Assembly (NCBI RefSeq): GCF_011045215.1
Contig: NZ_CP049201.1
Source: Escherichia coli
GTDB lineage: Bacteria > Pseudomonadota > Gammaproteobacteria > Enterobacterales > Enterobacteriaceae
Length of the DNA stretch: 64,000 nt
Direction: 5' to 3' (one strand)
The notes under the pieces were generated by a model. It was not told the DNA's origin, did no database searches, and saw only the letters and a program-made list of their open reading frames with translations. The position numbers and the translations under genes are program-made. Shown one piece after another: positions 2,994 through 25,096 of this stretch (position 1 is its first letter; every line of letters starts with the position of its first letter).

Positions 2994-3271
2994 AAAATAC
3001 GCACCTCCTTCTCGCTCCTGAAAGATGGACAGTTTTGTATTCTTCGTTCATATTCACAGGTAACCTGCCCCAGAATATCCTCCGGCGGTGTCAGCCACTT
3101 ATTCCTGAGCAATACACTGGTTGATGAATGGCAGCAGGCTATTTCAGCAATAATTTCATGTAATATCTCCGGCCTGAATTTCTTCAGTTCATTGTGATGT
3201 TCCCGGGTAAAACCATGTTCATCGAACAAAAGCTGCCATATCATTGATATACTTCCTTTATTCATCATCAA
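2951..3271 (-). CDS. hypothetical protein (106 aa); 3' end overlaps the IS4 right inverted repeat
   Basis: ORF whose start overlaps the stop of the upstream PerC-like gene (ATGA overlap at 3268-3271). Last codons (RIFMKGDHSIT) are encoded by the IS terminal repeat, so the native C-terminus may be replaced. Confidence 0.3.
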   Translation of the reverse strand: MMMNKGSISMIWQLLFDEHGFTREHHNELKKFRPEILHEIIAEIACCHSSTSVLLRNKWLTPPEDILGQVTCEYERRIQNCPSFRSEKEVRIFMKGDHSITSIEIG

Positions 3272-3597
3272 TACCTGTTATCTGAATATCTACAGGTCAA
3301 TATACCTTTTCTGAATACCTCTCCGGACGGGCTGGCAATCCCCATTCGCCTCAGCGTGGCATCTGCAGCTTTTACCACTTCGCTGATATCCAGCTTTTCA
3401 GGTAGCGGCGGGGACGATATCTGCGTCAGGCAATAATTCCTGCGTAACAACAACCACTCCCGTTGTACTTCTGTACATTCAAAATTGCCCATAACAAATA
3501 GCCAGCGGGCAGAAGCTCTGCGCCAGTAACCTGCAGCCTCCAGTTTCTGTGCAACCGCGTCTTCCACAACCTCCGGGGTTCTCTTTTTCCTACTCAA
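3268..3597 (-). CDS. PerC-family transcriptional activator-like protein
   Basis: 109 aa; motif LEAAGYWRRASARW...QREWLLLRRNYCL resembles the conserved core of PerC/Pch regulators (from memory, not searched). Confidence 0.5.
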   Translation of the reverse strand: MSRKKRTPEVVEDAVAQKLEAAGYWRRASARWLFVMGNFECTEVQREWLLLRRNYCLTQISSPPLPEKLDISEVVKAADATLRRMGIASPSGEVFRKGILTCRYSDNRY

Positions 3598-4348
3598 AAC
3601 ATCAACTCACTGAAATAATACACATATCTGACGCTATCAGCGAACCGTCCATGCCAGGTTCAGTACCAATGCGTTCATCCGGCCAGCCCAGACGTGACAG
3701 GTCCCTGACAATATCAGGCATTGAGGTTATCTGATATTTTTCCTTTTCACTGCGTATTTAATCTACAGAATTTCCGGAACAGTCAGAAATTATAAGGTTA
3801 CGTGAAACGCTGCTCTAGATAACCTCTTCAGTAGTATTATCCTCTCATTATAAGTTACTATTTTTAACAACATTTTATCTCTGATTTACATGTTTATTTT
3901 AAAACATATAATATCTCTATATTGGTACTGAAACTGACAAAAACGAGACATGTTCTGACTACCGAACATCACCGGAATTTTCTCAGCAAATTTCCCATGT
4001 AGTCGAAAATGCCAAACTAAAGATGAGTTTATCTCTGCCATTAACCATGATTAATTGTGGATTTGTCTCTCCCCATGGATTTAAACACAATCATTATAAA
4101 CGTCTCGCAGTTATCTCCAGTTTGGTTGCCACTGTAACGGAATTATTTCCTGATAAATTTTATTCACTACGAAATTACTAACAACACCATTTTCTTTTAG
4201 CTATTGCGCAATAGCACTTATTTTATATGTCTCAGGAATATGCTGATGTGACTCAACTAAAGAAGTCTGTACCCATGGATTCCGTACAATAATATGAGCG
4301 CATTGTTCGAATCAGGTTTGTGTCTCCCGATACAATGTTTTTCAGACT

Positions 4349-7030: not shown

Positions 7031-7471
7031 ATTCTCACTCAGAAATTATCATTTAACTTACGGAAAATTGTTAAGGCACTCCCGATATTAGCTCCGGAGG
7101 ATTTTCCACAACCCCGGGACTGTTAACATATTTCTGCCTGCCATATATACATTGAATTCAGTCATAACAGTCAATACCAGAATTACAGGAACGCGATGCC
7201 GATACGCTCGTTATTGAATACAGATAGCCCTGGCACTAATTCATCACGATACTCTGTATTTACTATTTTCACTGCTTTTTACAACCATTCCCCCAGGTAA
7301 AAAAGTCCATTTATCATGCTCCTCTTTAACGCCTGTCAGCCTAATTTAAGAATGGATACCGTGGGTGGAATTAACAATACTTACTCAGGCCAATGCCATG
7401 TAACCGCCTCACTGAAAAAGCCAGATCAGCTAACCAGGCACAGACCAACATCGCAAAAATTACCATGCAGC

Positions 7472-7507
7472 ACGCGCGTATTTTCATGGAAGGAGATCAT
7501 CCAATAA
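7472..7507 (+). repeat. Solo copy of the IS4-element terminal repeat plus 9-bp outside flank
   Basis: 7484-7507 CATGGAAGGAGATCATCCAATAAC matches the IS right-end repeat 21/24; the preceding GCGTATTTT also matches the sequence just outside the IS right end (2994-3002, complementary strand). Confidence 0.6.
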
Positions 7508-7656
7508 CGGCGTTTTTCAAGGAAACGAATCTCTTTGATTATCTATGGTGTGTACATTCTTTTGGGTTTATTTTCCATTACCATGTTTTATCAGCCATTA
7601 TGGCTGCCTCACTGGTTTGCCAGCGTGTTCCACCTGATAACGATTAATCAACTGAT

Positions 7657-8874
7657 TCAGTGCCATTTCAGCCTGTTTTTGATGCTAAACACCTCCGTTT
7701 TCAGTTCACTGACCGTCATGTATTTTCCCCGCTGTTCATCCAGACGGTTCAGGCGCTCAGCCAGCTGCTGTAAGCGGGTCATGCCTTCGTTCCAGCCCGT
7801 CATTGCCTCTTCCGGGAGCGCACGACTCCTTATGCTCTTCTGCCAGTTATCCACCATTTCCTGAACACGGGGATTGCCGGGGAAAAGTCCCCTCAGTTGC
7901 TGCAGCAGCTGCGCACTGCGTTGCAGATTGTATGCCGGGGGTAATTGTGTCAGCCGCGTTATCTGCTGACCGGAAAGGGTTATCCACTCTGACGCATGAT
8001 TTAACAATGAGGATGTTCTGCTGAGCTGTGTCATCTGGTCTGCTGAAAGCACATCCGGTGGTGGTGTCAGCAGCGCCCTGAGTTGCTGCTCTGCCGGTGA
8101 TGACTGTGTCAGAAACTGCCATCCCGGAATGACCACGCTGACAGTCAGCAATGCCGCACAGACACCAGCCAAAAACGGCTTCAGAAACATGGACGGGAAT
8201 TTCTGAAGGGAGGGTGTGGGCTCTGTTTTTGTTTCAGAAACAACATACACCAGACGGGAGTGCGGCAGGGGCTGATGTTCCTGTACGTCCCGAGCATCAG
8301 ACCGGAGTGCCTGAGCCGGAAGGGTTACCGGAGACGACGCTTCGCCCTGTACAGGCTGGTTCTCCAGACGGGTGATATATCCCTTCACCATGGCTTCCGG
8401 CAACGCCACTTTACTGCTCTGTTTAAGTTCGTGCCGGGCCAGTGTGTCACTCAGTGCCTTCAGGAATGTTTCGGTCTGATACAGCAGGGGCAGATTGTCA
8501 CGGTCGTCCGGTGGCATGGCCCGGAGCGTTTTTTGCAGACGGTTGAACAGACCGGTAATAATTTCCAGCCGGGCATGGGTATTCAGCGGCCACATCACTG
8601 ACCAGTGATGCCGGGTCAGCGCCACAATCAGAGCCAGCCCTTCATTCAGGCCACTTAACCCTGTTGTATGCATCCGGGCAATGGTGTACCAGGATGCCGT
8701 CTGCAATTCCACGCCATTGTGTTCATACAGACGCAGGCAGAGCGTTTCCACGTAACGCCAGTCAACATCCGGGCGTGCCGGGTGGGTCAGTTTGCTGATT
8801 TCATCGCGCAGGGCAGCATAATCCGGTAATGACCGGGGGTCACCACCGGTTTTTAGTTTCACTTCAGAAGTCAT
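7657..8874 (-). CDS. ImpA_N-domain (TssA/VasL-like) protein with a central transmembrane helix
   Basis: 405 aa; N-terminal DWRYVETLCLRLYEHNGVELQTASWYTIARMHTTGLSGLNEGLALIVALTRHHWSVMWP follows the ImpA_N pattern; hydrophobic segment FLKPFLAGVCAALLTVSVVIPGW. Confidence 0.55.
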   Translation of the reverse strand: MTSEVKLKTGGDPRSLPDYAALRDEISKLTHPARPDVDWRYVETLCLRLYEHNGVELQTASWYTIARMHTTGLSGLNEGLALIVALTRHHWSVMWPLNTHARLEIITGLFNRLQKTLRAMPPDDRDNLPLLYQTETFLKALSDTLARHELKQSSKVALPEAMVKGYITRLENQPVQGEASSPVTLPAQALRSDARDVQEHQPLPHSRLVYVVSETKTEPTPSLQKFPSMFLKPFLAGVCAALLTVSVVIPGWQFLTQSSPAEQQLRALLTPPPDVLSADQMTQLSRTSSLLNHASEWITLSGQQITRLTQLPPAYNLQRSAQLLQQLRGLFPGNPRVQEMVDNWQKSIRSRALPEEAMTGWNEGMTRLQQLAERLNRLDEQRGKYMTVSELKTEVFSIKNRLKWH

Positions 8875-8928
8875 CGGCAGATTCAGTGTTGCTGTATTAA
8901 ATCATGATTAACAGTTACGGAAAGAATG

Positions 8929-9234
8929 TCAGTGTGATACCGGGACCCGGGAAAGGTATTCCACTGCACGGATGATTGCCGGTGTCACATCCCACCGCCG
9001 TTTCAGAACCGGTAACAGCTCATTAAGGTTTCTGATATAACGCTCAGTGAACAGCCGTTGTCCGTCCCGGGTTAAATGAAAACCTGACTGATTACAGGTA
9101 ATGGTGATATGACAGGTATCGTTGCCAATATATACGGCTTCCTGAGGTCTGAATCTGACATTCCAGTGCCAGGAGTACGGAGAGTGGTTCAGATAAAAAA
9201 GACGCATCTGAATATCGTTAAATAACGGGTTCAT
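8929..9234 (-). CDS. hypothetical protein (101 aa), same strand as and tightly spaced between its two neighbours
   Basis: ORF with 54-65 bp gaps to flanking genes; no recognisable motif. Confidence 0.4.
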   Translation of the reverse strand: MNPLFNDIQMRLFYLNHSPYSWHWNVRFRPQEAVYIGNDTCHITITCNQSGFHLTRDGQRLFTERYIRNLNELLPVLKRRWDVTPAIIRAVEYLSRVPVSH

Positions 9235-9299
9235 GGCGAATTAAATAAACCTGATAATAACAGTATGGTGAAAGCCCGGAATAAAGAAATAATCCGGTA

Positions 9300-11126
<1,827 letters not shown>

Positions 11127-11222
11127 ATTCCGTCTGAAGGGAATATGTCGAATACTTCATTAAAATACAAACATTCAGTAAACTTCACTACGCAAGTGCA
11201 ATTATCCAGTCCCGTCTAATGA

Positions 11223-11798
11223 TTAAAAACGATAACCAACTCCAACAGTAAATCCATTGACCGAATGTTTTCCATATATATCTGCTTTAGTTCCCTCATA
11301 CCCAACATTTACAGACATATTGCCCCACGGATTAATAATAACACCAGCTGCATAAGCAAAATCAGTGGATTTTTTTGATACAGACTCACTTAAATATCCA
11401 TCAGATTCATCAGCACCCACACTGTTTCTCCACTCATAATCTCCCTTCGCTTTAGTATGAGATATCCCCACCAAACCATAAAAACTGATATAGTCATTCA
11501 GACGATAAGCTGGGCCTGCGAGAAATGAATAATATTTAATATCAGCCTGCTGTCTGTAAAAATCGTCAGCTTCATCGCGATGACTGTCCGCCCAGTCACC
11601 TTTCATATACGAAAAACTCCCGACAACACTGACCGGAGAATCCCACTCATATCGATATTGCAGATTCACTCCTTTAATATTCTTAAAGTCCTGTACCTTA
11701 CTCTGAGCATAACCAGCCGATAGCGTATGATTATCAGCCAGTGTTGAACCACTCATAACAGATAATATCATTACTGAAATTATAACGAGTTTTTTCAT
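11223..11798 (-). CDS. Ail/Lom/PagC/OmpX-family outer-membrane beta-barrel protein
   Basis: 191 aa, signal peptide MKKLVIISVMILSVMSGSTLA, alternating aromatic beta-strand pattern, C-terminal GVGYRF. Confidence 0.8.
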   Translation of the reverse strand: MKKLVIISVMILSVMSGSTLADNHTLSAGYAQSKVQDFKNIKGVNLQYRYEWDSPVSVVGSFSYMKGDWADSHRDEADDFYRQQADIKYYSFLAGPAYRLNDYISFYGLVGISHTKAKGDYEWRNSVGADESDGYLSESVSKKSTDFAYAAGVIINPWGNMSVNVGYEGTKADIYGKHSVNGFTVGVGYRF

Positions 11799-12380
11799 TT
11801 AACCCTCCTTCATTAATAAATGATTTCTGAAAATCAAAAAGGACCACACATCACAAAACATTATTTGAAATCATCATCAAAAAACTATAAATATATCACC
11901 TGACGATTTGAACACACTGACAAAAAACCAGGCATGGTAATAAACCGAACTCCCCACAAACTTCTGTTGCCTCAGATACCACAGCCACTTTCCTCAGGTA
12001 TAAATGTTGTTCCATAACGAACCAGCCCTGTATCGTTAAATCCTGCCTCAGTGACATAATGTAACTCACCAGACTGAGTCTTCGCCTACATCATCATTTC
12101 AATACGCTTAATACATTATTCATAATATCCAGAATTTCCTATAGAATATTTACTTTGCTATATCAGTCGGTCCATAATCAGGCAAATCATTAATGCTTCC
12201 TGACTGAATATTTAAAATGCGTCACATGTTATCAAAAATTTAAAGAATACCCTATTCTTCTTCATTGGCCGGATTTAGCTCAATCTTGTCAACAAAACTA
12301 ATATAAAGCCGTTCATAAAGAGAAGGATGTAGCTTCGTTATTTATCTTTTACATGTAACAGTACCAGGGGATATTCCGCA

Positions 12381-12453
12381 CATCTCTGTGGCTATCATCC
12401 CCACCACATCGCCGGTGGCAGCACCTGCGGCACCAGCAAGAACGTTATTTCCC
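12381..12453 (-). other. Remnant of cdiA pretoxin-region sequence (second, degenerate orphan module)
   Basis: 73 bp about 89% identical to cdiA 14621-14693; encodes ...GNNVLAGAAGAATGDVVGMIAT then diverges and stops after about 15 codons. Confidence 0.7.
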
Positions 12454-12467
12454 AATGTCCGGATTAC

Positions 12468-12728
12468 TCAGGATCCTGACGAGGGCGTTTTTCGAGCCTT
12501 GCGTTCGTCCAATTTGGTGAAGATCCACGATCTAAATGCTGCTGCAGTTCCAACAATAACACTAGCAACTAAAATATTTTCAAGATCTGATTGCTTAATA
12601 TTCACTTCATGGCTAATAACAAACTTAACTACTATCAGAGTCAAGGAGAAGAATATTAAGCAGCAGAAAATCATGTACATAATACTTAGGAGCAGTAAAC
12701 CTACAGTAGCTTTATTTTTTCGTTCCAT
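12468..12728 (-). CDS. Orphan CdiI-type immunity protein (small two-TM membrane protein)
   Basis: 86 aa, two hydrophobic helices, overlaps the end of the orphan toxin ORF by 17 bp; position directly after a VENN-toxin module. Confidence 0.55.
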   Translation of the reverse strand: MERKNKATVGLLLLSIMYMIFCCLIFFSLTLIVVKFVISHEVNIKQSDLENILVASVIVGTAAAFRSWIFTKLDERKARKTPSSGS

Positions 12729-13314
12729 TTATCTCATCTTTAACTGCATTGCTGATAAATTCACCACCTATAGCACCAATAATATCACCTGAAGGCACTG
12801 AACCTGGACCTAAAACAGGGCTAAATACCGGCGGTGCAACTACTCCAACTACAGTACCGAATACCCAACCAGCTCCCGTACCAGCTAAAGCACCTTTATC
12901 TGGTCCATCAATAAATAGAGTTCCACCTGCCGCTATCCCTGCGTTCTGCCATATATTTCGACCTGGAGCCAGCGCTCCAGTAATGCCTGCCGAGGCACTT
13001 CCCCAGTAATCCCAGCTCTTGTTTTCATTGCCTGGTTTGCTCAAGTCGTACCACTGATACGTACCATTGGCAATGGCTGAGATGACTGCGCCACTGACTA
13101 CTTTACCTGTTGATGCTGCAGGTCCTAAATACCAGGCACCTGCAATCAATACGCCATCTTTATAGCCATCAACTATCACTTTACTTATATTGGCACCTTC
13201 AGGTAACTCACCTTTGGCAAGTTTATCCAGTCCTGCCTGCTTCTGTTCCGGGGTGAGATTATTGGCATCAGCATACTGATTCCATGAGGAAACCGCCTGA
13301 CCATAACTCACCAT
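12712..13314 (-). CDS. Orphan CdiA C-terminal toxin module (glycine-rich, membrane-active type)
   Basis: Reading frame opens just after the main cdiI stop; in-frame VVVENN (VENN at 13336-13347) precedes the first ATG (13314); Gly/Ala-rich hydrophobic segments as in the main CdiA-CT. Confidence 0.65.
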   Translation of the reverse strand: MVSYGQAVSSWNQYADANNLTPEQKQAGLDKLAKGELPEGANISKVIVDGYKDGVLIAGAWYLGPAASTGKVVSGAVISAIANGTYQWYDLSKPGNENKSWDYWGSASAGITGALAPGRNIWQNAGIAAGGTLFIDGPDKGALAGTGAGWVFGTVVGVVAPPVFSPVLGPGSVPSGDIIGAIGGEFISNAVKDEINGTKK

Positions 13315-13352
13315 TCCTGATGGCAGACTGAGCGCATTATTCTCAACAACAA

Positions 13353-13571
13353 CTATTTACGATAGTATCTTCGCATTTGTAGATAGAGTTGTAACCAAAT
13401 CCCAGCACCTCCCCATAAGCCAACTACTGCGCCAATTATTCCGTATTTTACATACACCTCAGAAGGTATTGGTTCCCGAGCTATAAACCAGATACTAACC
13501 ACTATTCCAATAGAGCAAGTAGCTATAGATATAAGTAACAACTTAATAAGAAGTAGTAGATGTTTTTTCAT
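13353..13571 (-). CDS. cdiI: CdiI immunity protein (72 aa, two TM helices)
   Basis: Start overlaps the cdiA stop (ATGA at 13568-13571); hydrophobic two-helix protein. Confidence 0.7.
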   Translation of the reverse strand: MKKHLLLLIKLLLISIATCSIGIVVSIWFIAREPIPSEVYVKYGIIGAVVGLWGGAGIWLQLYLQMRRYYRK

Positions 13572-16500
13572 TTTTTGTCTCCATCAACTTCTTTTTGCGT
13601 TGCGCTGCTTGCACCTTCTGATACGAATGAACCAACAAATCCACCAAATGTTCCTGGTATAGAACTCATTTGGCCGCCTTGATACATACCGTATCCGATA
13701 GACTTTTCCGAATATTGCAGTGAATATTTACTGGCGTCCATTCCCAGTTGATTTTTGATGTATTGAGCTTCTAACTTATTAGTAATTGAAGCGCCAATGT
13801 TATAGCCAAGGCCTGTACCAGCCATGCTACCCACTACTGATGCGGTACTGTCCTGGCCTTCAATCTGGCTGCTCATGTAAGCGCTACCGGCACCCAACAA
13901 CTGGTTAGCGTAATATCCTTTCCCGGCTGTACCTACACCAGTCAAGCCTGACATCATGAAACTGAGATAATCGAACTTATCACCGATATTTCCCGTACCA
14001 ATTTGTACCGCACCATTAGCCCCATAGCTCAGCCCGGCACTAACAAATTTTTCCGTCAGCGTGGCTGATGACGTTAACAACGAACCCGCTCCGGCAACCG
14101 TACCCCAGTAATTTTCCGGTTCCCCGAAGAAAGCCAGAGCCCTGTCACCCTTCGACGTATTACTGTTCAGATAATTCAGGTCGTAGCTGTTGCCTTCAGC
14201 CACGTAATCCTTCACCTCCTGATTAGTCAGTGAACCATACAGCCAGCTAGGTCGGCCCGCCGCGCTGAGCCCGCCCTCAATATTCCATTTATCTTCCCCG
14301 GACAGAGCCGTCAGAGGATCTGCGGCCACATCAATGTGTAATTTCTGTCGGTTCTCTGCGCTTAATACAGCATATTTATTCTGAATATCGCCGCAGTCTC
14401 CACCCGCTTTACGACAGGCCGTCATTTCTCTGTCAAAAGCATGCGCCTCGTCGTAGCTGAGGTAGTTATTCTCAACTGTTGTCTTACCTGACTGTGCGCC
14501 GGCTACCGCTGAAGCCCCCGAGTCGCCCACCAGACCACCGGCCAGGCCGGCAGCAACCGTTGCCAGCGTGGAGACCGTCTGTTTCTCTGTCTCACTCAGT
14601 TCACTCACCGGTTTATCGTACATCTGTGTGGCTATCATTCCCACCACCTCGCCGGTGGCTGCACCTGCAGCACCGGCAAGAGCATTATTTCCCTGTGCCA
14701 GAGACAGTGCGGCATTCACCACGGCATGGGCGGCCACATTTGCAGCCTTATTCACCTCACCTGTAACCGGGTCTGTGGTCATGGTTTTCACCACTTCAGC
14801 CAGATACGGTGCTGCACCACCTGCCAGGGCTGCACTCAGATTACCGCCGGCCAGCCCCTGTACTGCTGCCGTTGCGGCCTGTATCGCCTGCTGGTATTTG
14901 CCTCCCGTTCCAAAACCGGAGGCCGCCATACCGTTATTGTAAGCCCGCTGTGCCACATCCTGTTCCGTGAACGGTTTTCCTGCTGCCTCAAGCTCTGCAC
15001 GGGCCTGATTCAGTGCTGCCGGGTCCCGTTTCGCTTTCTCACCGGCTATCTGTCCTTCCGTTCTGGCAATATCTGCCACCTGGTTACCAATCTCACCAAT
15101 GAGTTGCGCCTGCTGCAACCGCTGCTGCTCTTTTTCCCTGTCAAAGATGGGGGACAGCGTCTGGTTTGCATGCGCAACGTCACGGTTCAGGTCTGCCACA
15201 TCCTGTTTCTGGCTCTGTGTATCCCGGATAGTGATATTCCCGGCAGACACAGCCGACTGCGTGGTACTGTCCGCATGGCCTTCATGATTTGCACCGACCA
15301 GCAGATTGTTTGCCATGTTCCCCAGGAAATTTCCGGCAACACTGCCACCGGTACTGAGCCCTGCACTCTGATGTTCCGTTTTAAAGTCAGCCCGGTTTTC
15401 AGTGTCACTGAAGCCCAGTGTGCCGGTATCCAGCCTGTTTTTATCTGCCGTTGCCGTGGACGCAATCACCGCACCGTTCAGTTGTGTATGCTGTCCGGTC
15501 GTGACATCAAACCCGCCCCTGCCGGCAAAAATCCCTGTCTGCTCCTGCACACTGTCGTGGTTACTGTGCATTTTATCCCGGCTGAGGCTCACACTCGCCG
15601 AACCGCTCATGGACCCGAAAGTGAAGCTGCCTCCGGCGCTGGCATTCTGCTGTTTACTGTCATAATGGTCACTGTCCTGCTCACTGGTCAGTGTCAGATG
15701 GCGACCGGCATCCACTTTCACGGTTTCTCCACTGGCCTGCGCCCCGGTAAGTGTGGTGTCACGCCCACTGATAATGGTCAGCTGTTTTCCCGCATCCACC
15801 GTGGTTTCTGTATGGGTGGTACCGTTGCCTTTTTCACTGCCCTTACCCTGGTTTGCGCTGGCTGACAGACTGAAACCAGGCCCTCCGGGCCCCACACCGA
15901 TACCGACACCCACGCTGCCACCACTGGATGTGTTCTTTCCTTCCAGCTTTGACGTGTTTTCTGCTGATACCAGATTCACGTCACGGTTTGCCTGCAGCAG
16001 AACGTTGTTCCCGGCCTTTATCTGACCGCCCTGTATCGTCAGGTCACCATCCACGCCCTTCACGCCGGAGCCGGTGGCCTGAATACTGAGGTTATTACCT
16101 GCGGTCAGTGTACTGCCCTTCGCCACCGTCTGCTCTGACTGCTGTTCTGATTTCGAAGACTGGCTGCCGTAAGAGAGGCTGATACCCACGGTATTGTTAT
16201 TCTCTTTCTGGTTGCCCTGTGCTTCTGCCAGTCGTCCGGCCTGCACGGCCTGAGCCCCCGAGAGCGCGGCCTTCACCCCCTGCAGGGCTTCAAGCCGGCT
16301 GTTTCCGGCAGATTTCGCCGCCTGTACGGTCTCCACCGTCGTGTTCAGGGCGCTGCCCGCTGTGCCGGACAGGGCAAGCGTCAGACCGGAGGTTTTCTGC
16401 TCCACCGTATGTGTCTGCACATGCCGGTCAGTGGCGGCGGTAATGCTGACCTCCTTACCACTGAGTGCCATGTCCCTGCCGGCAATCAGGTCAGAGCCGT

Positions 16501-19500
16501 TGACGGTCAACCGGTTACCTGCCTGAAGGGAAACATCACCGTGAACACTCCCCACCGTGCTGCCTTTCTGCGTGGTGTCTGTTGCGGTGTCCGTGACCTT
16601 CAGACTCTGGCTGCCCACGCTGAATCCCACACCTCCGGAGCTCATCAGTCCGGATTTTTTCTCCTGTTTCAGGTGTGTTTCACGGTTGCTTTCTGTCAGC
16701 GTTCCGATACTCAGGTTATTTCCGGCAGCCAGGGAGACACGGTTATCCCCGGCCACACTGCTGCCCGTGACGTTCAGATTATGTCCGGCACCGATACTGA
16801 CCGTATCCCCGTTCAGTTCACTGCCCGTCATGGTCCGGCGGTCAGTGACATCATGCGTGGTAGTGGTGGTTTTCGATAACATCCCGCTGTTGCCGGTCAC
16901 TTTATGGTATTCATCCAGCGAGCGGGTATTCTGTGCACCGGTCAGCGTCACGTCATGACCCGCCATCAGGGCCAGGCCTTTCTGAGCTGACAGCAATGCC
17001 GCCTGTGACGTCATATCCCGTCCGGCGGTCAGCGTGACATCACCGTTACCGGCAAGCGTGCTGCCCGTACTCTGTGTGACGCCCTGCGACAGACGATTAT
17101 TTTTATCCCAGATAATATTGTCCTGCGCGGATGTGGTCACTGTGGAGAATGTCATATCCCTGCCGGCACTGAGTTGCGTCAGACTGTCCTTACCCTGGTT
17201 CACCACCGTTGCTGCCGTCAGGTTTATGTCCCGTCCGGCCTGCAGCACCAGTCTGCCCTGGTCATTCTGCACATATACGCCAGCCACACTGTCGATGCTG
17301 GTACGTTCAAAATGGTTCTGTCCGGCGTCACTCTGTGCCGTACGGGTGGTGGTGGTCAGACTGATATCCCGTCCGGCCATCGCCAGCAGGCTGTCCGTGG
17401 CCTGCAGCAGCCCGCCGGTACTGTTAATATCCGTCCGGGCCGTCAGGCTGACATTTGCTCCCTGAATGGTGCCGGCCTGGTTGTGAATGTTTTCTGCACT
17501 GAGCTGCACGGCCTGCTTCCCGGCCAGTTTACCGCTGTTAAACAGGTCACCATCCAGCTTCATCACCATGTCCCTGCCGGCAATCAGCGCACCGGCACTG
17601 TTCACATCACCGGGTTTTACACGGGCATACACCTGAGGTACCTGAACCGTCTGCGTGCTGCCGTCCGGCAGTGTCACCGTGGTGTTAACCAGCCAGACAA
17701 TATCACCGGTCAGTAACGCCATCTGCTCAGCAGTCAGCGCCACACCTGGTGTCAGGTTGTATTGCTTACCAAATGCAATACCCGCATCCATTAACGCCTT
17801 AAACTGCTCTTCATCATTACTGTATCCGTCCAGGTACCGTTGCCCGGTCAGAGCGACAACCTGCTCACGAATCAGACGCTGTTCGTAAAAACCATCCCCC
17901 AGGCGTTTGAGCATGTTATCCCCGTTCTGAGAAAACGCCTTCTGCATGTAATCACTGCCCAGCCACGTCTTCTGGTTCGTAAAACGCGGGTCCGTTTCAA
18001 CCAGATATGGCACATTCACTGCCGGATTTGTTTTAAACAGGCTGCTGTCCGGCAGACGGGTATCCGGCCCGGCAACATGGATACTGCCCTGAGGTGCGCT
18101 GACTTCAAACTGCTGCCCCGGCAACAGAATGACCGGTTCACCGGCTGACACCACCGGGCGAAGCGGTATCCGGTCAGTAACGGCTACTGTCGCATCCACA
18201 TTTCCGGTCAGTCCTGTCTGTACATCCGTTCCCTGTGGCTTCAGGGGAGAAAGCGTGACCTGGCTGCCCTGAACCTGTCCGTGGCTGGTGAGCTCTCCCG
18301 GCTTCAGCGTGATGGTCTGAATGACGGGGGGCGGCTCGTAAGGGGAAATTCTTTCCCCCTGCCTGTCATTTTTATTTTTTCTTTTTATCCGGTAATAATA
18401 TGTGGATGTCCCTTTATCAGTAACATGGCGCTCTCCGCTGACACTGACGTTTTCCACATCACCGGCCTGCATATCCAGCAGACCACCTGCAACCACCTGG
18501 CTCTTGTCATTAAGCAGTTTGTCTGCCACAACCGTCATGCCGGCACCGGACAGTATTTTCCCCGGGTCGGAGTCTTTTACCCGGGTTTCCTCCACGGTAC
18601 GGGTGTATTCATATTTTGTGAACCGGTCGTTGTTATGTCCGGTATCATCCGGCGTGTTCAGGTTCAGCAGTCCATCAGAGGAGTTGTTATCAATGAACAC
18701 CCCCTCATCTTTTGCATTCCAGCGGACATCTGACCCGCGATGCTGATACTCAGTCACCTTTTCCGTGGAAACCACCACGCGCTCCGTGGTGAAATGGTCA
18801 TTGACGTTATTGATTTGTCCGGCACTCAGTACCAGATATCCGGCGGCTTCAATAGTGGCACTGTGATTATTCAGTACACCGGTTTTACCTGTGGCGGTGC
18901 CATTCGCATCCAGCGTGCCACCGATATGCATATCACCTGCACTGTAAATCAGGCTGTGCGTCCGGTTATTCAGGGTCTGTACCCCCAAGTCCACACGCTC
19001 ACGCCCGGCCAGCGTCGCCGCCACGCCATTTTCTTCCAGATTATTAAATGTGGCAGCACTGACACCAACAGCATCGCCGTAGATTCGCCCGGTACCGGAA
19101 TTCGTCAGGGTGTTCGCCTGAAGATGCGTATATTTCCCGTCAATCAGCCCACGGTTCAGCAGTGTGTCCGTCACGTTAAGCCAGGTCTGCCCGGCACTGA
19201 TTTCACCTTTCCCGGTGTTTTCAAGGCGGATGCTGTTCAGGTCAAGTCGGCTGCCTGCCAGCAGGCTGCCGGTATTAGAGACATCGCCATTAACGGAAAG
19301 CGTAAGGTTTCCGTTCGCAATAGTCTGACCACTGTTACTGAACGCTGTGTTACTTTTCAGCGTTATATCGCCCGGGGAAAGCAGTTTCCCGTCACCACCG
19401 AGCTGACCGGCATCCACAGAGACTGACTGCCCGGCCTTAACCACACCGTCACGGTTCGAAAACGCCAGCTGACGGCCACTGACAGACAATGTCGCGCCGG

Positions 19501-22500
19501 AAGAGAGCACGCCATCATTATTACTGAGCGTCCTGTCTGCCATAACCGTAAGCGCCCTGTCTGCCAGAATACTGCCCTCCTGGTTATCAAGGTCCTGCGT
19601 CGTGATGTGTATTGTCTGCGCTTCCAGCCCCTGGCCGGTATTCTGCGTGTGGCGATTGATAAACTGCAGGGCGTTCAGCGTAATGGCAGAACCACTGCGA
19701 ATCAGACCAGAGACGTTGTCCACAACGCCCCGTACACTGTCGAACAGAATGTCGCCCACAGACTGTATCTGTCCGTGGCTGTTCTGCAGGCCTCCCGTAT
19801 GCAGACGGAGTTCACCTTCACTGACCAGCCGGCCACCCTCACGGTTATCCAGCGAGGTGGTGCTCAGGTCAGCTGTCGTTTTCGCCCCCACGGTCCCGCC
19901 CCGGTTATCCATTGCTCCGGTACTGACAGTCAGTTCCTGCAGGCTGTTCAGCGTACCCCCTCTGTTATCCAGCGTCCGGCCTGCGCTATTAATGCTGATG
20001 CCTTTCCCCTGAATAAGACCGGACTGATTGTTCAGCGCCAGACTGTTCCGGCCGGGCAGACCGGTCGCCACAATCTGACCATTCGCCACCACCTGACCGG
20101 ATGTATTGTTAACCACGCCTGCAGTCAGGGACAGCGCATCTCCCGACAAAAGCACACCGGCAGTGCTGTCCAGTGTGCCGGCATTCAGCGTCATCGGGCC
20201 CTGACTGATAACCCCGCCCCGGTCACCACTGTTACGGTTGCTCAGTGTGTCAGCACGGAGATTCAGTGTGGCACCGCTCTGTATCAGACCACCTGCATCA
20301 TTGCTGATATCCGTCGAGGAAAGGGTCAGTGACTGCTGTGCCACCAGTCTGCCGCCCTGATTATCAGAGCGGGTGACATCCAGCCTGCTGTTACCGTTGC
20401 TGACCACCGTCCCCTGCTGATTTTCCAGCACATTCAGGTGCGCATTCAGGTCCCCGCCGGCGGCAAGCGTCCCTTCCTGATTACTGACATCGCCACCACT
20501 CAGCAACATATCCGTCCCGGCCTTCAGTGCGCCTTTCTGGTTCATCAGCGTACCTGACGATATCTGTAATGACGCCTGACTCCCCAGCACGCCCTGACGG
20601 TTATCGAGCGTTCCGGCGTTCAGGGTCATATCCTTCTGACCCGCCATAAATCCCTGCTGGTTATTCAGCATACCGGCCCGTACTGTCAGGGTACCGGCGC
20701 TGCTGATACCACCCCGTGTTTTCGTGTTCCGGTTACTGAGAACCCCGTCCTGTACATCCAGCGTCATGTCACTGCCGGACTGAATCAGACCATCATCAGA
20801 GACCAGTTCGCTGCCTGACACAGACAGCGTTTTCTGTGAAAGCAGTCTGCCGGACGTATTATCCAGCGCACCATCCAGCGTCACGGACAGCCCGTCAGAC
20901 ACCACCGTACCCTGGTGGTTATTCAGACTCCCTGCCGAAATATCCAGCCTGCCGGCGGACTCCATTCGTCCCTCAGTATTGCTGACAGCCTGCTGTGTTT
21001 TTATCCTGCCCGTTCCGGCAGCAGCTGAAATCAGTCCGTTGTCGTTATTCAGTGCCTGTGTATTAATCAGGATGTCACGGCTGGCAATCAGACTTCCCTG
21101 CTGGTTATCCACGGCGCCGGTTGTCCTCACCTGCAGACTACCTGACTGCGCCGCCTGCACTTTCCCCCTGCGATTATCAAGGCTCAGTGCATCCAGGCGC
21201 ACCGCGCCATTTGCCGCAAGCAGCCCTTCCCGGTTATCCACGCTTCCCGGCAGACTCAGCGAAAAATCCCCTGTTCCCGTCTGAATCAGACTGCCTTTAC
21301 GATTTGACAGGCTCTGTGCCGATATCTGCAGTGTGTCGGCATTTACCGTGCCACCATTATTGCTGAACTGCCCGGCAGTCCGGGCGGAAAGCGTACCGGC
21401 ACTCAGTTGTGCATTCTGTGTGGACAGATTTCCGCTGCCTGCATCCAGCTCAGTATGTTGTCCCTGTATCCGGCTGTTGCTTAAATCCAGCCCCTGCCCC
21501 TTCAGTTGCATGTCCCCACCGGACAGAACCTGTCCGTGTGCCGCCAGTTCGCCGGTGGTACTGACAGTCAGGTTGCCCGCTGCCGCCAGACGTCCGTCAT
21601 CTTTCACCCCGGCGGCCAGCAGACTCCGCTCACCGCCGGTCAGACGCGCTGTCTGAATCCGGGTGTTGCGGCGTGATGCCACAGAGCCTGTATGGGTGAA
21701 TGCACCATCACTCTGTATCTGCGTATCCTGCCCCGCATAAACAGAACCACTGTTATGCAGCTCCCGGGTTGTCGCCAGATGCACATCCGTTTTCGCACTG
21801 ATACTGCCACTGTTTTCAATACGTCCGTCAGCCGTCAGGGTAACCGCCCCTGCCTGCGCACCAATATGACCGGCGTTACGAACCCCCACCCCCGTTTCCG
21901 TACCGACAAGGCGAATTTTTCCGGCATACATTCCACCAAGGCTGGACACATCCAGCGCCACCTGTGGCTGCGAAGAGGCATCAGCGGCTTTTTTCTCAGT
22001 CTGCCCGTGTGCAATATCCACATTGTTACGTCCGGTGGTCACTTTCAGGTCCTGCGCCCAGATACCCGCATTAATCTTCACAGACCGGGCAATGATATCG
22101 GTATAATCCGTGCGCGAGGCATCCATCCCTTTGCCCGTAATCTGAATCTCACCACGTTCAACACTGAATCCGGTCAGACTGCCGTTTTTCATCTGAGGCT
22201 GCCCCGTGGTCAGCGTGGCCCGGTTCGCATTAATAAAACCGCACCCGTCGCAACTGATGCCGGCCGGGTTCGCAATCACCACCTGCGCCTTTTTCCCGGC
22301 AACCTCAACAAAACCGTTCAACTGGCTGGGATTGCGACTGTTCACTTCATTAAGAATGATTCGGGCCTCTCCCTTCGCCAGCCACGGGTTACCGGCAACC
22401 ATGCCGCCCAGTTGGGTCTGCACATTTTTATGCGAGTTATTCAGAATGACACCCTGATGACTGACATCAAACTGACTGTAAGTATTGTGCGATACCCCAC

Positions 22501-22804
22501 CTGCAGAAGGTGTCTGGATATTGACCTGAGGAATGCCGCTGGCTGTCTGCGTAATCGTGGGCTGCTGATGCCCCGGTGCGCCATGGTCTGCGACAATGCC
22601 TGCAGCACTGACAGAATGCACCATCCCCGAGGCCAGCCACAGGGAGAATGCAAGCGATGTGACACGGCAGATACGTTGCCTGCGTGGATATCCTGTACGG
22701 GAGGAGGGTGATGCACCGGCGCGACCGGAACGGGCAATATCTGCCACCACCATCAGCATTCCCCGGGCTTTGTTAAAAATAATGCGGTAACAATTTTTGT
22801 TCAT
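13568..22804 (-). CDS. cdiA: CdiA contact-dependent inhibition toxin / TpsA exoprotein (3078 aa)
   Basis: Extended signal peptide MNKNCYRIIFNKARGMLMVVADIARS, TPS domain, long filamentous-haemagglutinin repeat region, VENN motif at 14465-14476 followed by a 298-aa Gly-rich C-terminal toxin domain. Confidence 0.95.
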   Translation of the reverse strand: MNKNCYRIIFNKARGMLMVVADIARSGRAGASPSSRTGYPRRQRICRVTSLAFSLWLASGMVHSVSAAGIVADHGAPGHQQPTITQTASGIPQVNIQTPSAGGVSHNTYSQFDVSHQGVILNNSHKNVQTQLGGMVAGNPWLAKGEARIILNEVNSRNPSQLNGFVEVAGKKAQVVIANPAGISCDGCGFINANRATLTTGQPQMKNGSLTGFSVERGEIQITGKGMDASRTDYTDIIARSVKINAGIWAQDLKVTTGRNNVDIAHGQTEKKAADASSQPQVALDVSSLGGMYAGKIRLVGTETGVGVRNAGHIGAQAGAVTLTADGRIENSGSISAKTDVHLATTRELHNSGSVYAGQDTQIQSDGAFTHTGSVASRRNTRIQTARLTGGERSLLAAGVKDDGRLAAAGNLTVSTTGELAAHGQVLSGGDMQLKGQGLDLSNSRIQGQHTELDAGSGNLSTQNAQLSAGTLSARTAGQFSNNGGTVNADTLQISAQSLSNRKGSLIQTGTGDFSLSLPGSVDNREGLLAANGAVRLDALSLDNRRGKVQAAQSGSLQVRTTGAVDNQQGSLIASRDILINTQALNNDNGLISAAAGTGRIKTQQAVSNTEGRMESAGRLDISAGSLNNHQGTVVSDGLSVTLDGALDNTSGRLLSQKTLSVSGSELVSDDGLIQSGSDMTLDVQDGVLSNRNTKTRGGISSAGTLTVRAGMLNNQQGFMAGQKDMTLNAGTLDNRQGVLGSQASLQISSGTLMNQKGALKAGTDMLLSGGDVSNQEGTLAAGGDLNAHLNVLENQQGTVVSNGNSRLDVTRSDNQGGRLVAQQSLTLSSTDISNDAGGLIQSGATLNLRADTLSNRNSGDRGGVISQGPMTLNAGTLDSTAGVLLSGDALSLTAGVVNNTSGQVVANGQIVATGLPGRNSLALNNQSGLIQGKGISINSAGRTLDNRGGTLNSLQELTVSTGAMDNRGGTVGAKTTADLSTTSLDNREGGRLVSEGELRLHTGGLQNSHGQIQSVGDILFDSVRGVVDNVSGLIRSGSAITLNALQFINRHTQNTGQGLEAQTIHITTQDLDNQEGSILADRALTVMADRTLSNNDGVLSSGATLSVSGRQLAFSNRDGVVKAGQSVSVDAGQLGGDGKLLSPGDITLKSNTAFSNSGQTIANGNLTLSVNGDVSNTGSLLAGSRLDLNSIRLENTGKGEISAGQTWLNVTDTLLNRGLIDGKYTHLQANTLTNSGTGRIYGDAVGVSAATFNNLEENGVAATLAGRERVDLGVQTLNNRTHSLIYSAGDMHIGGTLDANGTATGKTGVLNNHSATIEAAGYLVLSAGQINNVNDHFTTERVVVSTEKVTEYQHRGSDVRWNAKDEGVFIDNNSSDGLLNLNTPDDTGHNNDRFTKYEYTRTVEETRVKDSDPGKILSGAGMTVVADKLLNDKSQVVAGGLLDMQAGDVENVSVSGERHVTDKGTSTYYYRIKRKNKNDRQGERISPYEPPPVIQTITLKPGELTSHGQVQGSQVTLSPLKPQGTDVQTGLTGNVDATVAVTDRIPLRPVVSAGEPVILLPGQQFEVSAPQGSIHVAGPDTRLPDSSLFKTNPAVNVPYLVETDPRFTNQKTWLGSDYMQKAFSQNGDNMLKRLGDGFYEQRLIREQVVALTGQRYLDGYSNDEEQFKALMDAGIAFGKQYNLTPGVALTAEQMALLTGDIVWLVNTTVTLPDGSTQTVQVPQVYARVKPGDVNSAGALIAGRDMVMKLDGDLFNSGKLAGKQAVQLSAENIHNQAGTIQGANVSLTARTDINSTGGLLQATDSLLAMAGRDISLTTTTRTAQSDAGQNHFERTSIDSVAGVYVQNDQGRLVLQAGRDINLTAATVVNQGKDSLTQLSAGRDMTFSTVTTSAQDNIIWDKNNRLSQGVTQSTGSTLAGNGDVTLTAGRDMTSQAALLSAQKGLALMAGHDVTLTGAQNTRSLDEYHKVTGNSGMLSKTTTTTHDVTDRRTMTGSELNGDTVSIGAGHNLNVTGSSVAGDNRVSLAAGNNLSIGTLTESNRETHLKQEKKSGLMSSGGVGFSVGSQSLKVTDTATDTTQKGSTVGSVHGDVSLQAGNRLTVNGSDLIAGRDMALSGKEVSITAATDRHVQTHTVEQKTSGLTLALSGTAGSALNTTVETVQAAKSAGNSRLEALQGVKAALSGAQAVQAGRLAEAQGNQKENNNTVGISLSYGSQSSKSEQQSEQTVAKGSTLTAGNNLSIQATGSGVKGVDGDLTIQGGQIKAGNNVLLQANRDVNLVSAENTSKLEGKNTSSGGSVGVGIGVGPGGPGFSLSASANQGKGSEKGNGTTHTETTVDAGKQLTIISGRDTTLTGAQASGETVKVDAGRHLTLTSEQDSDHYDSKQQNASAGGSFTFGSMSGSASVSLSRDKMHSNHDSVQEQTGIFAGRGGFDVTTGQHTQLNGAVIASTATADKNRLDTGTLGFSDTENRADFKTEHQSAGLSTGGSVAGNFLGNMANNLLVGANHEGHADSTTQSAVSAGNITIRDTQSQKQDVADLNRDVAHANQTLSPIFDREKEQQRLQQAQLIGEIGNQVADIARTEGQIAGEKAKRDPAALNQARAELEAAGKPFTEQDVAQRAYNNGMAASGFGTGGKYQQAIQAATAAVQGLAGGNLSAALAGGAAPYLAEVVKTMTTDPVTGEVNKAANVAAHAVVNAALSLAQGNNALAGAAGAATGEVVGMIATQMYDKPVSELSETEKQTVSTLATVAAGLAGGLVGDSGASAVAGAQSGKTTVENNYLSYDEAHAFDREMTACRKAGGDCGDIQNKYAVLSAENRQKLHIDVAADPLTALSGEDKWNIEGGLSAAGRPSWLYGSLTNQEVKDYVAEGNSYDLNYLNSNTSKGDRALAFFGEPENYWGTVAGAGSLLTSSATLTEKFVSAGLSYGANGAVQIGTGNIGDKFDYLSFMMSGLTGVGTAGKGYYANQLLGAGSAYMSSQIEGQDSTASVVGSMAGTGLGYNIGASITNKLEAQYIKNQLGMDASKYSLQYSEKSIGYGMYQGGQMSSIPGTFGGFVGSFVSEGASSATQKEVDGDKK

Positions 22805-22819
22805 TCTGATAAACCTGAC

Positions 22820-23347
22820 TTATCTCTCCGGCACATCCACAGCAAGCGGGTGCTGCACACGCCACTGGCGCGCCTCTTCACGACTGACCTGTGCACCCCG
22901 GAAATTCATCACCCGCAACCCGGTCTGCTGCCCACGGTGGTACAGCGAACGCCAGCACAGACGGGGAAAAATATCCTGCCGGACAAGACGACTCATATCC
23001 GGGGTATGTCCAAAAGGGGCAATCCAGTCACAGACCCACATCCGGTCGCCGCTGTTCCAGTCCGACTGAGGCATGAGAATTGCCGGCTGCGTAAGATAAC
23101 GCGCCTCTGCCTCCGGGCTGAGCCAGGCCTGGCTCATGAAGAAAACCGGTCGCCCCTGCTCTGTTGCCACCACATACTGTCGGTGCTTAATCACCGGCAG
23201 CAGCAGGTCCGGCAGGGTATGCAGTGGCGCATCACGATGCAGGGGGGAGTGCATCCACAACCAGACGGCCGCCCCCAGAACTTCCGCCTCATTGACCGGC
23301 TCACCGGAATACAGGGGACTCAGAACGTCATATTTCCCGTTACGCAT
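22820..23347 (-). CDS. cdiC: CdiC, HlyC-family toxin-activating lysine acyltransferase
   Basis: 175 aa; VWLWMHSPLHR and SGDRMWVCDWIAPFGH match HlyC/CyaC acyltransferase motifs; sits between cdiB and cdiA. Confidence 0.85.
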   Translation of the reverse strand: MRNGKYDVLSPLYSGEPVNEAEVLGAAVWLWMHSPLHRDAPLHTLPDLLLPVIKHRQYVVATEQGRPVFFMSQAWLSPEAEARYLTQPAILMPQSDWNSGDRMWVCDWIAPFGHTPDMSRLVRQDIFPRLCWRSLYHRGQQTGLRVMNFRGAQVSREEARQWRVQHPLAVDVPER

Positions 23348-23356
23348 GAAATTTTC

Positions 23357-25096
23357 TCAGAAATCCCGGAACAGATTAAAACCGGCTGTCACATCACTCG
23401 TCATAAAACCCGCCGGTTTTGAAAACGGACGACCGATGAAAACGTCATAATCCGTACTGAACAGTTGCCCCCTCAGCCCCACAACACCACCGGCCAGATG
23501 ACGTCCCACCAGGTATTCACTGCCGGCTCCCCCCACCTCGCCGTAATCCATTCCCAGATATAACGCCTGCTCCGGCAGTGGCGTACGCCAGGCCAGGTCG
23601 TTGCGGATATACCAGCCGTTACTGGCATTCAGCGTTCGCTCCCCGTCAAAACCACGAACCGTCCAGCGGTTACCGATGGCAAACTGTTCCTGTGGGGTCA
23701 GCGGGGTATTGCTCAGCTGGCGCTGATACCGGAAGGAATAACTGAAGGGCTGCCCTGCAAGGGTAAAGGGCAGATTAAAGGATGCATTCAACTGCAGGAT
23801 CTTACTGAGCGCCGTTGCCTCACCGAACGTTTCTTCCGGCGCCGGCTGTGCACCAAACCAGCGGGTTCCCCGTTGCCAGCTGACACCAGCATCCAGTGTG
23901 GCCTGAGAAATATAATGACGGTGCTGCAGCCCAAGTCGCCAGGCCGCTGTCTGCCGGCGCTGCACCTGGATTTCCGTATCATTAATGTAGTTACGCGACC
24001 TGCGGGCCTGAACATCGTAGGTCAGCACCGTTTTCTGCGTCCCGTTACGGTGCAGTACCCGGCTCAGCTGCATACCCAGATTCTGACTCTCGCCACTGTA
24101 CTGGTAATCCTCAACCGCACCAGCTACCGTCTGATGGTAATCGTAATCACTGGCGGTGACGGAAAACTGCCAGTAGCCGAAAGGCACAGAGTAATGGGCC
24201 GTGTAGTTTTTACTGCCCTTACCCCCGTAATGTGGAAAATTACGGGTGGCAGAAACATACAGCAGGTCACTCAGGGAAAAAGGATTATCCAGAGAAAATG
24301 TTATACCACCGAGATAACGCCCTGTGCTGCGGGTACCTGAATCATCAAGCGAAAACCCCAGTCGCCAGTATTTGTCCTGTTTGCGGGTAATAAGAATGTC
24401 ACTTTCCCCTGGCTGCTCACCGGGTACAATTTCCATATCAGCCTGCACACCCGGCAGTCGTTGCATATTCTCCAGCCCCTGCTCAATGTCCCGTAAATCC
24501 AGCAGAGAACCTTCGTGTGCCGGGAATGAGGAATACAACTGAATATAGTCATCACTGTCCGGTGTCAGACGCACATGTCGCACAACACCGGGAATAACAA
24601 CCAGCCGGAGGATACCGCTTTTTAAATCCTGCGAAGGTGCCAGAACACGGGTGGTGACATAACCATGATCGACCAGACGGTTCTGCAATGTACTCATCAG
24701 CAGATTAATTCCTTTCGCCCCCAGGCAATGCCCGACCGCCCCGTTGGCGATTTTTTGTAAAGGCAGCCAGTGTGGTAACGCATCAGCCCCCTCCAGTTCC
24801 GTCTGTTTAATCTGAAAACAGGGCGTTTCAACAGGAAAATTAATCTTACGGGCAAAAGAGCCAGGTGCAGAAAGGCGAACATCAGGGGCTGAAGGCGTCA
24901 GTTGTTGCTCAAGGGCTTCCTGACGCTGCTGCTGAATGATAAATGCATTATCTCCGCTACGCCGGACATCCGCGGCCTGAAGAGATAAAGGCGATAATAA
25001 AACAGACATCAGTGTCAGTGACAGCAAGGACGGACAGCGCCGGAATACGCTTTGTTCCTCAGCCCTCTCGTTCCTGCAACATAATTTTCCAGTCAA
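23357..25096 (-). CDS. cdiB: CdiB, TpsB/ShlB-family outer-membrane transporter
   Basis: 579 aa, signal peptide, POTRA plus beta-barrel, C-terminal aromatic residue; 9 bp upstream of cdiC. Confidence 0.9.

Follow-up and report, generated by a model that had tools for sequence, protein, structure and literature searches.

A cdiB-cdiC-cdiA-cdiI locus of Escherichia coli with an orphan cdiA-CT/cdiI cassette at its 3′ end: a predicted ionophore tip, most likely silent, with a probably expressed immunity gene

Introduction

[quoted passage not shown] That such modules form a reservoir of toxins, drawn upon by recombination at VENN, is the hypothesis of that study, which also discusses Yersinia pestis Microtus 91001, where an orphan has been 'loaded' onto cdiA by deletion. 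Here we describe an orphan cassette of this kind, composed of the C-terminal toxin region of a cdiA gene (cdiA-CT) and its cdiI immunity gene, on E. coli contig NZ_CP049201.1 (RefSeq assembly GCF_011045215.1). Coordinates refer to the window, i.e. the whole 64,000-nucleotide stretch of this contig that was analysed; coordinates in other genomes are those of the respective CDI locus and are marked as such.

The family of toxins to which the cassette is compared below, the CDI ionophores, was surveyed and divided into six groups by Halvorsen 2024 (PLoS Genet 20:e1011494, PMC11630599). These toxins are composed of an entry domain and a five-helix ionophore domain, and their CdiI proteins are very hydrophobic two-helix hairpins of 72-100 residues. 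The glycine zipper is the only element common to all CDI ionophores, and sequence variation is concentrated in the C-terminal helices that contact the immunity protein, where it co-varies with CdiI. Every group-3 toxin tested depolarises target cells and requires AcrB. Group-3 ionophores are also toxic if made in the cytosol (CT-U124), and the entry domain's N-terminus has to be precisely processed for toxicity. Seven subgroups were tested in that work, and several of their CdiI proteins are listed as 'unannotated'.

Results

An orphan toxin frame opens within the stop codon of cdiI

In our reading, to which we assign a probability of roughly 85%, the window carries a cdiB-cdiC-cdiA-cdiI locus with an orphan cdiA-CT/cdiI cassette at its 3′ end, and the stump of a third cassette follows; the orphan toxin is most likely silent, its immunity gene is probably expressed, and the cassette could be re-armed. 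The elements of the array downstream of the cdiI gene of the deployed toxin are the following:

12712..13356, minus strand: orphan cdiA-CT, i.e. I-V-V, VENN (13347-13336) and a 207-aa toxin, without a start codon; in-frame TAA at 13359-13357, internal ATG at 13314
12468..12728, minus strand: orphan cdiI, 86 aa, with two hydrophobic segments (about residues 5-42 and 52-70, Kyte-Doolittle); overlaps the 3′ end of the toxin by 17 nt
12377..12453, minus strand: stump of the third orphan; its 77 nt are homologous to cdiA 14617-14693 and oriented alike (68/77 identical, 88%, in a direct-repeat search)
12342..12376, minus strand: tail of the stump frame outside the homology, reading CGISPGTVTCKR and then a stop (from translation and locus comparison)

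The cdiI gene of the deployed toxin ends with TAG at 13355-13353, and the orphan frame starts within this codon: in the +2 frame the DNA reads TAA-ATA-GTT-GTT-GTT-GAG-AAT-AAT, that is, stop-I-V-V-V-E-N-N. From VENN onwards the frame is open for 211 codons, to a stop at 12712-12714. The in-frame TAA lies three codons ahead of VENN, and there is no ATG, GTG or TTG between the two. At the first ATG of the frame (13314), AGGA abuts the start codon with zero spacing, so there is no spaced Shine-Dalgarno sequence. A preliminary description of this DNA, made from its letters alone, had proposed a new VVVENN frame right after the cdiI stop, followed by a Gly-rich toxin of 200 aa. The VENN at 13347-13336 is indeed in frame, glycine accounts for 16% of the toxin, and the figure of 200 aa corresponds to the open reading frame (ORF) from the internal ATG rather than to the 211 codons that follow from VENN. 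Because the orphan has no start codon, signal peptide or CdiA body, its toxin is most likely neither made nor delivered in this strain.

The orphan toxin resembles group-3 CDI ionophores

The orphan toxin contains a glycine zipper of five consecutive GxxxG motifs over residues 148-168 (G148, G152, G156, G160, G164 and G168). As the preliminary description had suggested, the toxin was aligned to known CdiA C-terminal families. Over 208 residues it shares 55% identity (E=4e-66) with the CT of the full-length CdiA of strain STEC17-183, whose CdiI, WP_001222075.1, is placed in group 3 in S1 Table of Halvorsen 2024. Two more CdiI proteins listed in group 3, namely WP_021531609.1 (RM10740) and WP_073488148.1 (C11), adjoin CTs that share the entry domain of the orphan, and the CT of a plasmid-borne full-length CdiA, WP_060612756.1, is near-identical to the first ~80 residues of the orphan and has a near-identical entry domain. 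In an exhaustive HMMER search of 1.84 billion representatives, the orphan domain was found at the extreme C-terminus of proteins of 2,975, 2,910 and 2,777 aa, the match being the last ~205 residues in the 2,910-2,975-aa proteins.

By these homologies, the orphan toxin is a predicted member of the alpha-helical glycine-zipper CDI ionophores ("type 10"), group 3. From the analogy with characterized group-3 toxins we infer both a need for AcrB and ionophore activity: the group-3-type entry domain would use inner-membrane AcrB for insertion into the target cell, and the C-terminal glycine-zipper alpha-helical ionophore domain would then dissipate the membrane potential.

Profile libraries gave no hit: the orphan toxin has no Pfam match even at E<=10 and no significant NCBIfam match, and the PT-VENN pre-toxin domain (PF04829; ~52 residues, with VENN at its end) is absent from a frame that keeps three codons before VENN. 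The RefSeq accessions of the orphan proteins match none in the available part of the S1 Appendix of Halvorsen 2024, which lists long, near-full-length effectors of ~2,700-3,300 aa. We also considered, and rejected, the idea that the family exists only as orphans. It arose from a word-indexed protein search whose matches for both toxin queries were all short (<=371 aa or <=512 aa), and the HMMER search gave carriers of 2,777-2,975 aa. The word-indexed search had moreover missed the known ~3,000-aa CdiA WP_060612756.1 (64% identity); thus, its lack of long proteins is a limitation of the search and not biology. Length distributions from such searches are misleading for the C-terminal domains of giant proteins. 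As a separate observation, the top HMMER match (P0165, 635 aa, E=9e-118) contains three separate stretches that match the orphan toxin and may represent an ORF that runs across several VENN-delimited cassettes in succession.

The orphan immunity gene is intact and conserved

The proposal that the orphan has its own 86-aa immunity gene with two transmembrane segments is borne out by the ORF at 12468-12728 and its two hydrophobic segments. The encoded protein is 41% identical both to the group-3 CdiI WP_021531609.1 and to the CdiI of the pS19_141-a cdiA. Its identity to the group-3 CdiI WP_001222075.1 is 22%, and the same value is obtained against the CdiI of the deployed toxin. The orphan CdiI is 99% conserved in STEC17-183, and its ORF is unbroken in strains C11 and O111:NM despite a frameshifted toxin there. 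No terminator-like site was found in 11700-13800, including the interval from cdiI to the end of the orphan, and the same region shows no promoter-like excess.

The orphan CdiI, an 86-aa two-helix membrane protein encoded next to the toxin, would be the cognate immunity protein. Following the EC93 precedent, its expression probably results from read-through of the cdi operon, and it would protect the cell against neighbours that deploy this toxin subtype.

Both reading frames of the cassette are intact in the window (211 codons for the toxin, 86 for the immunity gene), and the toxin frame is intact in STEC17-183 as well. Among the differing codons of the toxin, the ratio of synonymous to nonsynonymous changes is 11:3 relative to STEC17-183 and 15:4 relative to C5 (first 145 codons).

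A 77-nt block is the stump of a third orphan module

The 77-nt block downstream of the orphan cdiI is the sole long direct repeat in 11000-25500 besides the internal filamentous hemagglutinin (FHA)-type repeats of cdiA. The preliminary description had reported a 73-bp block (12381-12453) about 89% identical to cdiA, which we find as 65/73 identical positions (89%) within the longer repeat. The binomial chance of at least 68 matches in 77 is ~1e-31, or ~6e-22 when corrected for all pairs of positions in the window, so the identity is far above chance. The frame of the block reads ...MIATEMCGISPGTVTCKR up to a stop at 12342-12344, in agreement with the early stop noted before. The cdiA copy had been assigned to the pretoxin region; its place is in fact just upstream of the PT-VENN domain (~14456-14608).

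Comparison with other genomes shows what the block is derived from. In C11 and O111:NM, the 77-nt sequence runs on in register with cdiA, through the pretoxin region to VENN and a CT that starts VENNLLGGSELL. In C5, the homology of the block reaches 50 nt further upstream. The earlier interpretation as a second cdiA remnant is therefore right about the origin of the block from cdiA but not about its nature: as its continuation in C11 and O111:NM indicates, the block is what is left of the 5′ end of a third orphan module rather than a decayed second cdiA. The breakpoint at ~12376/12377 is common to the window, STEC17-183 and C5: in all three, the third orphan breaks off at one and the same base, and the same AT-rich flank adjoins it there. 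By this shared sequence junction, the cut goes back to a single old deletion, with which the array ends. If the two 77-nt direct repeats recombined, both toxin modules would be lost and CdiA would be left without a toxin.

The deployed genes

The genes upstream of the orphan are the following:

23357..25096, minus strand: cdiB, putative outer-membrane transporter of the two-partner secretion (TPS) pair; a 579-aa ORF directly upstream of the HlyC-family ORF and cdiA, identified from its position only
22820..23347, minus strand: cdiC-like acyltransferase gene between cdiB and cdiA; 175-aa ORF (Pfam HlyC PF02794, E=4.6e-32, match 1-127/127)
13568..22804, minus strand: full-length cdiA, 3078 aa (from the ORF list), with an intact N-terminus MNKNCYRIIFNKARG... 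followed by a TPS-like region
13568..14476, minus strand: deployed CdiA-CT, 302 aa from VENN (14476-14465), a glycine-zipper toxin (GxxxGxxxGxxxG, residues 216-228)
13353..13571, minus strand: cdiI for the deployed toxin, 72 aa, hydrophobic; its start overlaps the cdiA stop (ATGA), with GGAG 7 nt upstream of the ATG

All genes of the locus, from cdiB through the cdiC-like gene, cdiA and cdiI to the orphan, lie in that order on the minus strand. Because the 175-aa ORF matches HlyC over its full length, the locus order is cdiB-cdiC-cdiA-cdiI and not plain cdiBAI; an NCBIfam search with this ORF gave no match. CdiC lipidates a class of CdiA effectors. The PT-VENN domain of cdiA is recognized by Pfam (PF04829, E=3.2e-21, ~14456-14608), and other genomes have homologous regions that are labelled hemagglutinin-repeat protein or CdiA.

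The deployed CT has only a weak Pfam match, to CdiA_helical (E=0.011), and the available part of the S1 Appendix of Halvorsen 2024 has no 3078-aa entry. Its N-terminal region (VENNYLSYDEAHAFDREMTACRKAGGDC...) differs from the entry domain of the orphan. The C-terminal domains of the two toxins are homologous, both by BLASTP (E=1e-5) and by hhalign with the alignments trimmed after VENN, in which orphan residues 61-207 align to deployed residues 121-298 with 95% probability (E ~1e-8). It should be noted that a first hhalign comparison of the two families, at 99.8% probability, was discarded because the score was inflated by shared pretoxin/VENN columns. The orphan had been called a distinct toxin, which is true of the N-terminal entry domain and of the immunity protein (22% identity) but not of the C-terminal domain. 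Since the deployed C-terminal domain is homologous to that of the orphan and has a glycine zipper, the strain carries, as judged from the alignments, an armed and a silent toxin of the ionophore type, which differ in their entry domains.

The same or near-identical CdiI proteins follow the same deployed-type CT in C5, C11, O111:NM and O157:H7. In O157:H7 FRIK944, this CT/cdiI pair is the first orphan after cdiI; an identification of the deployed CT with orphan o10 of EC869 was considered and is not supported.

Cassettes are exchanged as units bounded by VENN

We compared the array with a collection of 5,426 complete E. coli genomes. None of these is identical to the window, and the best match, C5, covers 84% of it at 95% identity. 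In STEC17-183 and nine other genomes, the window from 11000 or 11800 to 13347 is present as a contiguous stretch at ~98% identity, and the orphan is found there too, behind a different cdiA. The stretch shared with STEC17-183 comprises the orphan CT, its cdiI, the stump, an AT-rich spacer and a gene of the Ail/Lom family. In five other loci, homology to the orphan ends exactly at the V of VENN (13347), regardless of the upstream sequence.

The arrangement in C5 is different. Here, 12730-14476 of the window is contiguous at 94.4% identity, a block made up of the deployed CT with its cdiI, the IVV-VENN junction and, behind it, the orphan CT; the block lies further down an orphan array, behind a cdiA armed with Ntox25. 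In C11 and O111:NM, 12376-13752 of the window is present at 99.3%. The junction in which the cdiI stop is followed by IVV and VENN and then by the CT of the orphan is found in the window, C5, C11 and O111:NM. In O157:H7 FRIK944, cdiI and the S*IVV|VENN junction are the same, but VENN is followed by another CT (VENNLLGGSEW...). In many orphans of the compared arrays, VENN lies only 1-3 codons past the stop of the preceding immunity gene. The CT/cdiI pair deployed in the window is itself an orphan in C5 (locus 5682-6811), C11, O111:NM and O157:H7 FRIK944 (locus 9011-10140).

Taken together, the comparative data support toxin-tip exchange at the pretoxin/VENN boundary, with cassettes swapped exactly at VENN in this lineage. 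This agrees with the preliminary description, which had seen in the array the footprints of toxin-domain exchange by recombination at the pretoxin/VENN region: homology ends at VENN in five loci, and FRIK944 has a different CT behind the same junction. The cassette could be re-armed by recombination that fuses the orphan to cdiA at the VENN codons. As the orphan keeps no pretoxin homology, such re-arming would have to use the ~11-nt VENN microhomology.

Exchange within the cassette is also indicated. The C5 orphan (locus 4788-5682) is near-identical to that of the window up to residue ~145 and diverges over the last ~65 residues, and its CdiI is 41% identical to that of the window and near-identical to WP_021531609.1. 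On this pattern, C5 has exchanged the immunity-contacting C-terminal part of the toxin along with the immunity gene. The subtype-specific part of the window cassette (the C-terminus of the toxin plus cdiI), taken as a 99%-identical copy, is present in 14 of the 5,426 genomes.

A further rearrangement is seen in C11 and O111:NM, where the deployed-type CT is split and permuted (locus 6001-6498 and ~8520-8921). Upstream of the group-3 orphan are its C-terminal ~60 codons and cdiI, and downstream of the third orphan are its N-terminal 500 nt. The order of the pieces suggests an old tandem duplication or a rearrangement of a three-cassette unit.

The flanks of the array

Beyond the array lie the following features:

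11799..12341, no strand: AT-rich spacer without long ORFs (none >57 aa over 11799-12376; 35% GC over 11800-12376), joining the array to the Ail/Lom-family gene
11223-11798, minus strand: gene for an outer-membrane protein of the Ail/Lom/OmpX family (NCBIfam E=2e-36 and 2e-31, both below the curated cut-offs)
9300-11126, minus strand: 608-aa ORF with a UvrD/Rep/HelD-like helicase domain, annotated in other genomes as '3'-5' exonuclease' or 'NERD domain' protein

The spacer is contiguous with the orphan in STEC17-183 (98.3%) and C5 (95.2%). In C5, the NCBI Prokaryotic Genome Annotation Pipeline (PGAP) annotates it as a frameshifted TssE pseudogene; no convincing reading frame is visible. Further out, no complete E. 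coli genome of the collection covers at least 80% of window 1-9000. In the best-matching E. coli genomes this region corresponds, at 95-97% and in pieces, to IS21-like elements (ISEc12), a gene for an AAA-domain protein, 3′-phosphoadenosine-5′-phosphosulfate (PAPS)-reductase-like and IbrB-like genes, and VasL/type VI secretion system (T6SS)-associated genes. Because window 1-9000 matches IS21-like, AAA, PAPS-reductase-like and T6SS-associated genes in pieces, the CDI locus is, by sequence, placed in a mosaic genomic island with island-like flanks that carry insertion sequence (IS) elements.

Alternative explanations

Several observations weigh against a cassette with a silent toxin and a probably expressed, protective immunity gene. 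All 14 occurrences of its subtype-specific part among the 5,426 E. coli genomes are orphans, and no strain that deploys exactly this subtype was found. The orphan cdiI, which has its own ATG, is preceded by a weak ribosome-binding site (GAG, 4 nt ahead of this ATG). In C11 and O111:NM 14614, the toxin is frameshifted after residue ~115 (locus ~7638-8516), and the toxin half is thus dispensable in some lineages; together with the unbroken immunity ORF, this fits selection on the immunity gene rather than on the toxin. There is no Pfam or NCBIfam model for the orphan toxin or for either immunity protein, deployed or orphan, so that the family assignment rests on pairwise and profile homology and on the matching of accessions to the table of Halvorsen 2024; the EC93 CdiA-CT likewise has no family model (PMC11630599). 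Finally, an AlphaFold2 model of the orphan toxin, built from a 70-sequence alignment, is all-helical with 7 helices but of low confidence (mean predicted local distance difference test score, pLDDT, 51.9; predicted template modelling score, pTM, 0.31), and it gives no confirmation of a five-helix bundle.

The cassette could instead be a functionless, decaying relic that was displaced when the current tip was acquired, with neither the toxin nor the immunity protein being made. The toxin without a start codon, the already truncated third cassette next to it, the frameshift of the same toxin in C11 and O111:NM, the lack of a promoter-like excess, and the degenerate, AT-rich region that adjoins the cassette would all suit such a relic. 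We nevertheless consider it unlikely, because both ORFs are intact here (211 and 86 codons), the differences between strains are mainly synonymous (11:3 and 15:4), and the immunity ORF is unbroken even where the toxin is broken. In EC93, moreover, there is transcription of the orphan region, and its CdiI is functional (Poole 2011, PMC3150448).

It is rather improbable, in our estimate, that this exact toxin/immunity subtype persists solely in orphan form. Should this be the case, and hold beyond E. coli, the cassette would be kept for a role unrelated to deployment, past or future: it might provide standing immunity against CdiA toxins of other Enterobacterales genera; alternatively, a low level of ionophore made from the ATG at 13314 and held in check by the immunity protein might act as an addiction or stabilisation module of the island.

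The 200-aa ORF from this ATG might also be an independent gene for a separately expressed membrane protein. In many genomes, it is precisely this ORF that PGAP calls (e.g. WP_215258030.1 and WP_205728382.1), under the name 'adhesin', and since group-3 ionophores are toxic in the cytosol, an internal product could be active, which would explain why the immunity gene is kept. The frame, however, is open upstream through VENN to a stop just inside cdiI, and homology to CdiA C-termini starts at VENN rather than at the ATG. The AGGA that abuts the ATG has zero spacing. Such a product would be short of the 9 residues that directly follow VENN, in an entry domain whose N-terminus needs precise processing (PMC11630599), and the name 'adhesin' is propagated from CdiA/hemagglutinin annotation. 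An independent gene is accordingly very unlikely.

Finally, the view that the 77-nt block resembles cdiA by chance or through low complexity (Gly/Ala-coding) and is no cdiA remnant, as its shortness and its Ala/Gly-rich peptide NVLAGAAGAATG might suggest, is refuted by the match statistics (68/77 identical bases, chance ~1e-31), by the C11/O111:NM copy, which keeps the cdiA register over the whole pretoxin region to VENN and toxin, and by the homology that goes 50 nt further upstream in C5.

Discussion

The orphan cassette with its probably expressed immunity gene is a clean and intact illustration of the storage and shuffling of toxin tips in CDI loci: a two-cassette block that is in use here is silent elsewhere, with the crossover points on the 12-nt VENN codons. 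It also bears on annotation. What PGAP calls 'adhesin' or 'hypothetical protein' at this position is really an orphan ionophore tip, as judged by its predicted family, and an annotation of the 86-aa immunity gene is usually missing. Public records already include the architecture, the toxin family and the subtype-specific sequence (in 14 complete genomes), and the locus adds no new biology beyond Poole 2011 and Halvorsen 2024. In particular, a reservoir role of the cassette would be an instance of the hypothesis of Poole 2011 (PMC3150448), applied here by analogy.

The array resembles the orphan modules of EC93, EC869 and other bacteria (Poole 2011) in that a VENN-initiated toxin fragment without translation initiation signals follows cdiI and is itself followed by a small immunity ORF. 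Some of the orphans described there also have no cdiA homology upstream of VENN, homology blocks run from VENN to VENN, and fragments without VENN or cdiI are found at the ends of the arrays. There is no difference in kind. The present array is short, with one complete orphan and one stump, it stands behind a cdiB-cdiC-cdiA-cdiI locus, and its orphan toxin is a predicted ionophore and not a nuclease.

The Y. pestis Microtus 91001 case has a counterpart in the deployed CT/cdiI pair and the orphan of the window, which form one contiguous block (94.4%) down the orphan array of C5. Unlike in Y. pestis, the present arrangement could reflect either promotion by deletion or displacement by acquisition, between which the pretoxin identities of 96.2% and 95.5% do not discriminate.

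With the group-3 toxins of Halvorsen 2024 (PMC11630599), the orphan shares a predicted bipartite organization into entry and ionophore domains, the glycine zipper and the small two-helix CdiI. The variation of the C-terminal helices also co-varies with the immunity protein, as the comparison of the window with C5 shows. The survey itself covers full-length effectors only, and the word 'orphan' does not occur in its main text. A last parallel is CdiA-CTo10 of E. coli EC869 (Jones 2021, mBio 12:e03367-20, PMC7858069), which is likewise orphan-encoded, depolarises membranes, and is active once grafted onto full-length CdiA. CdiA-CTo10 is a group-2, SecY-dependent toxin, whereas the orphan described here has a group-3-type entry domain.

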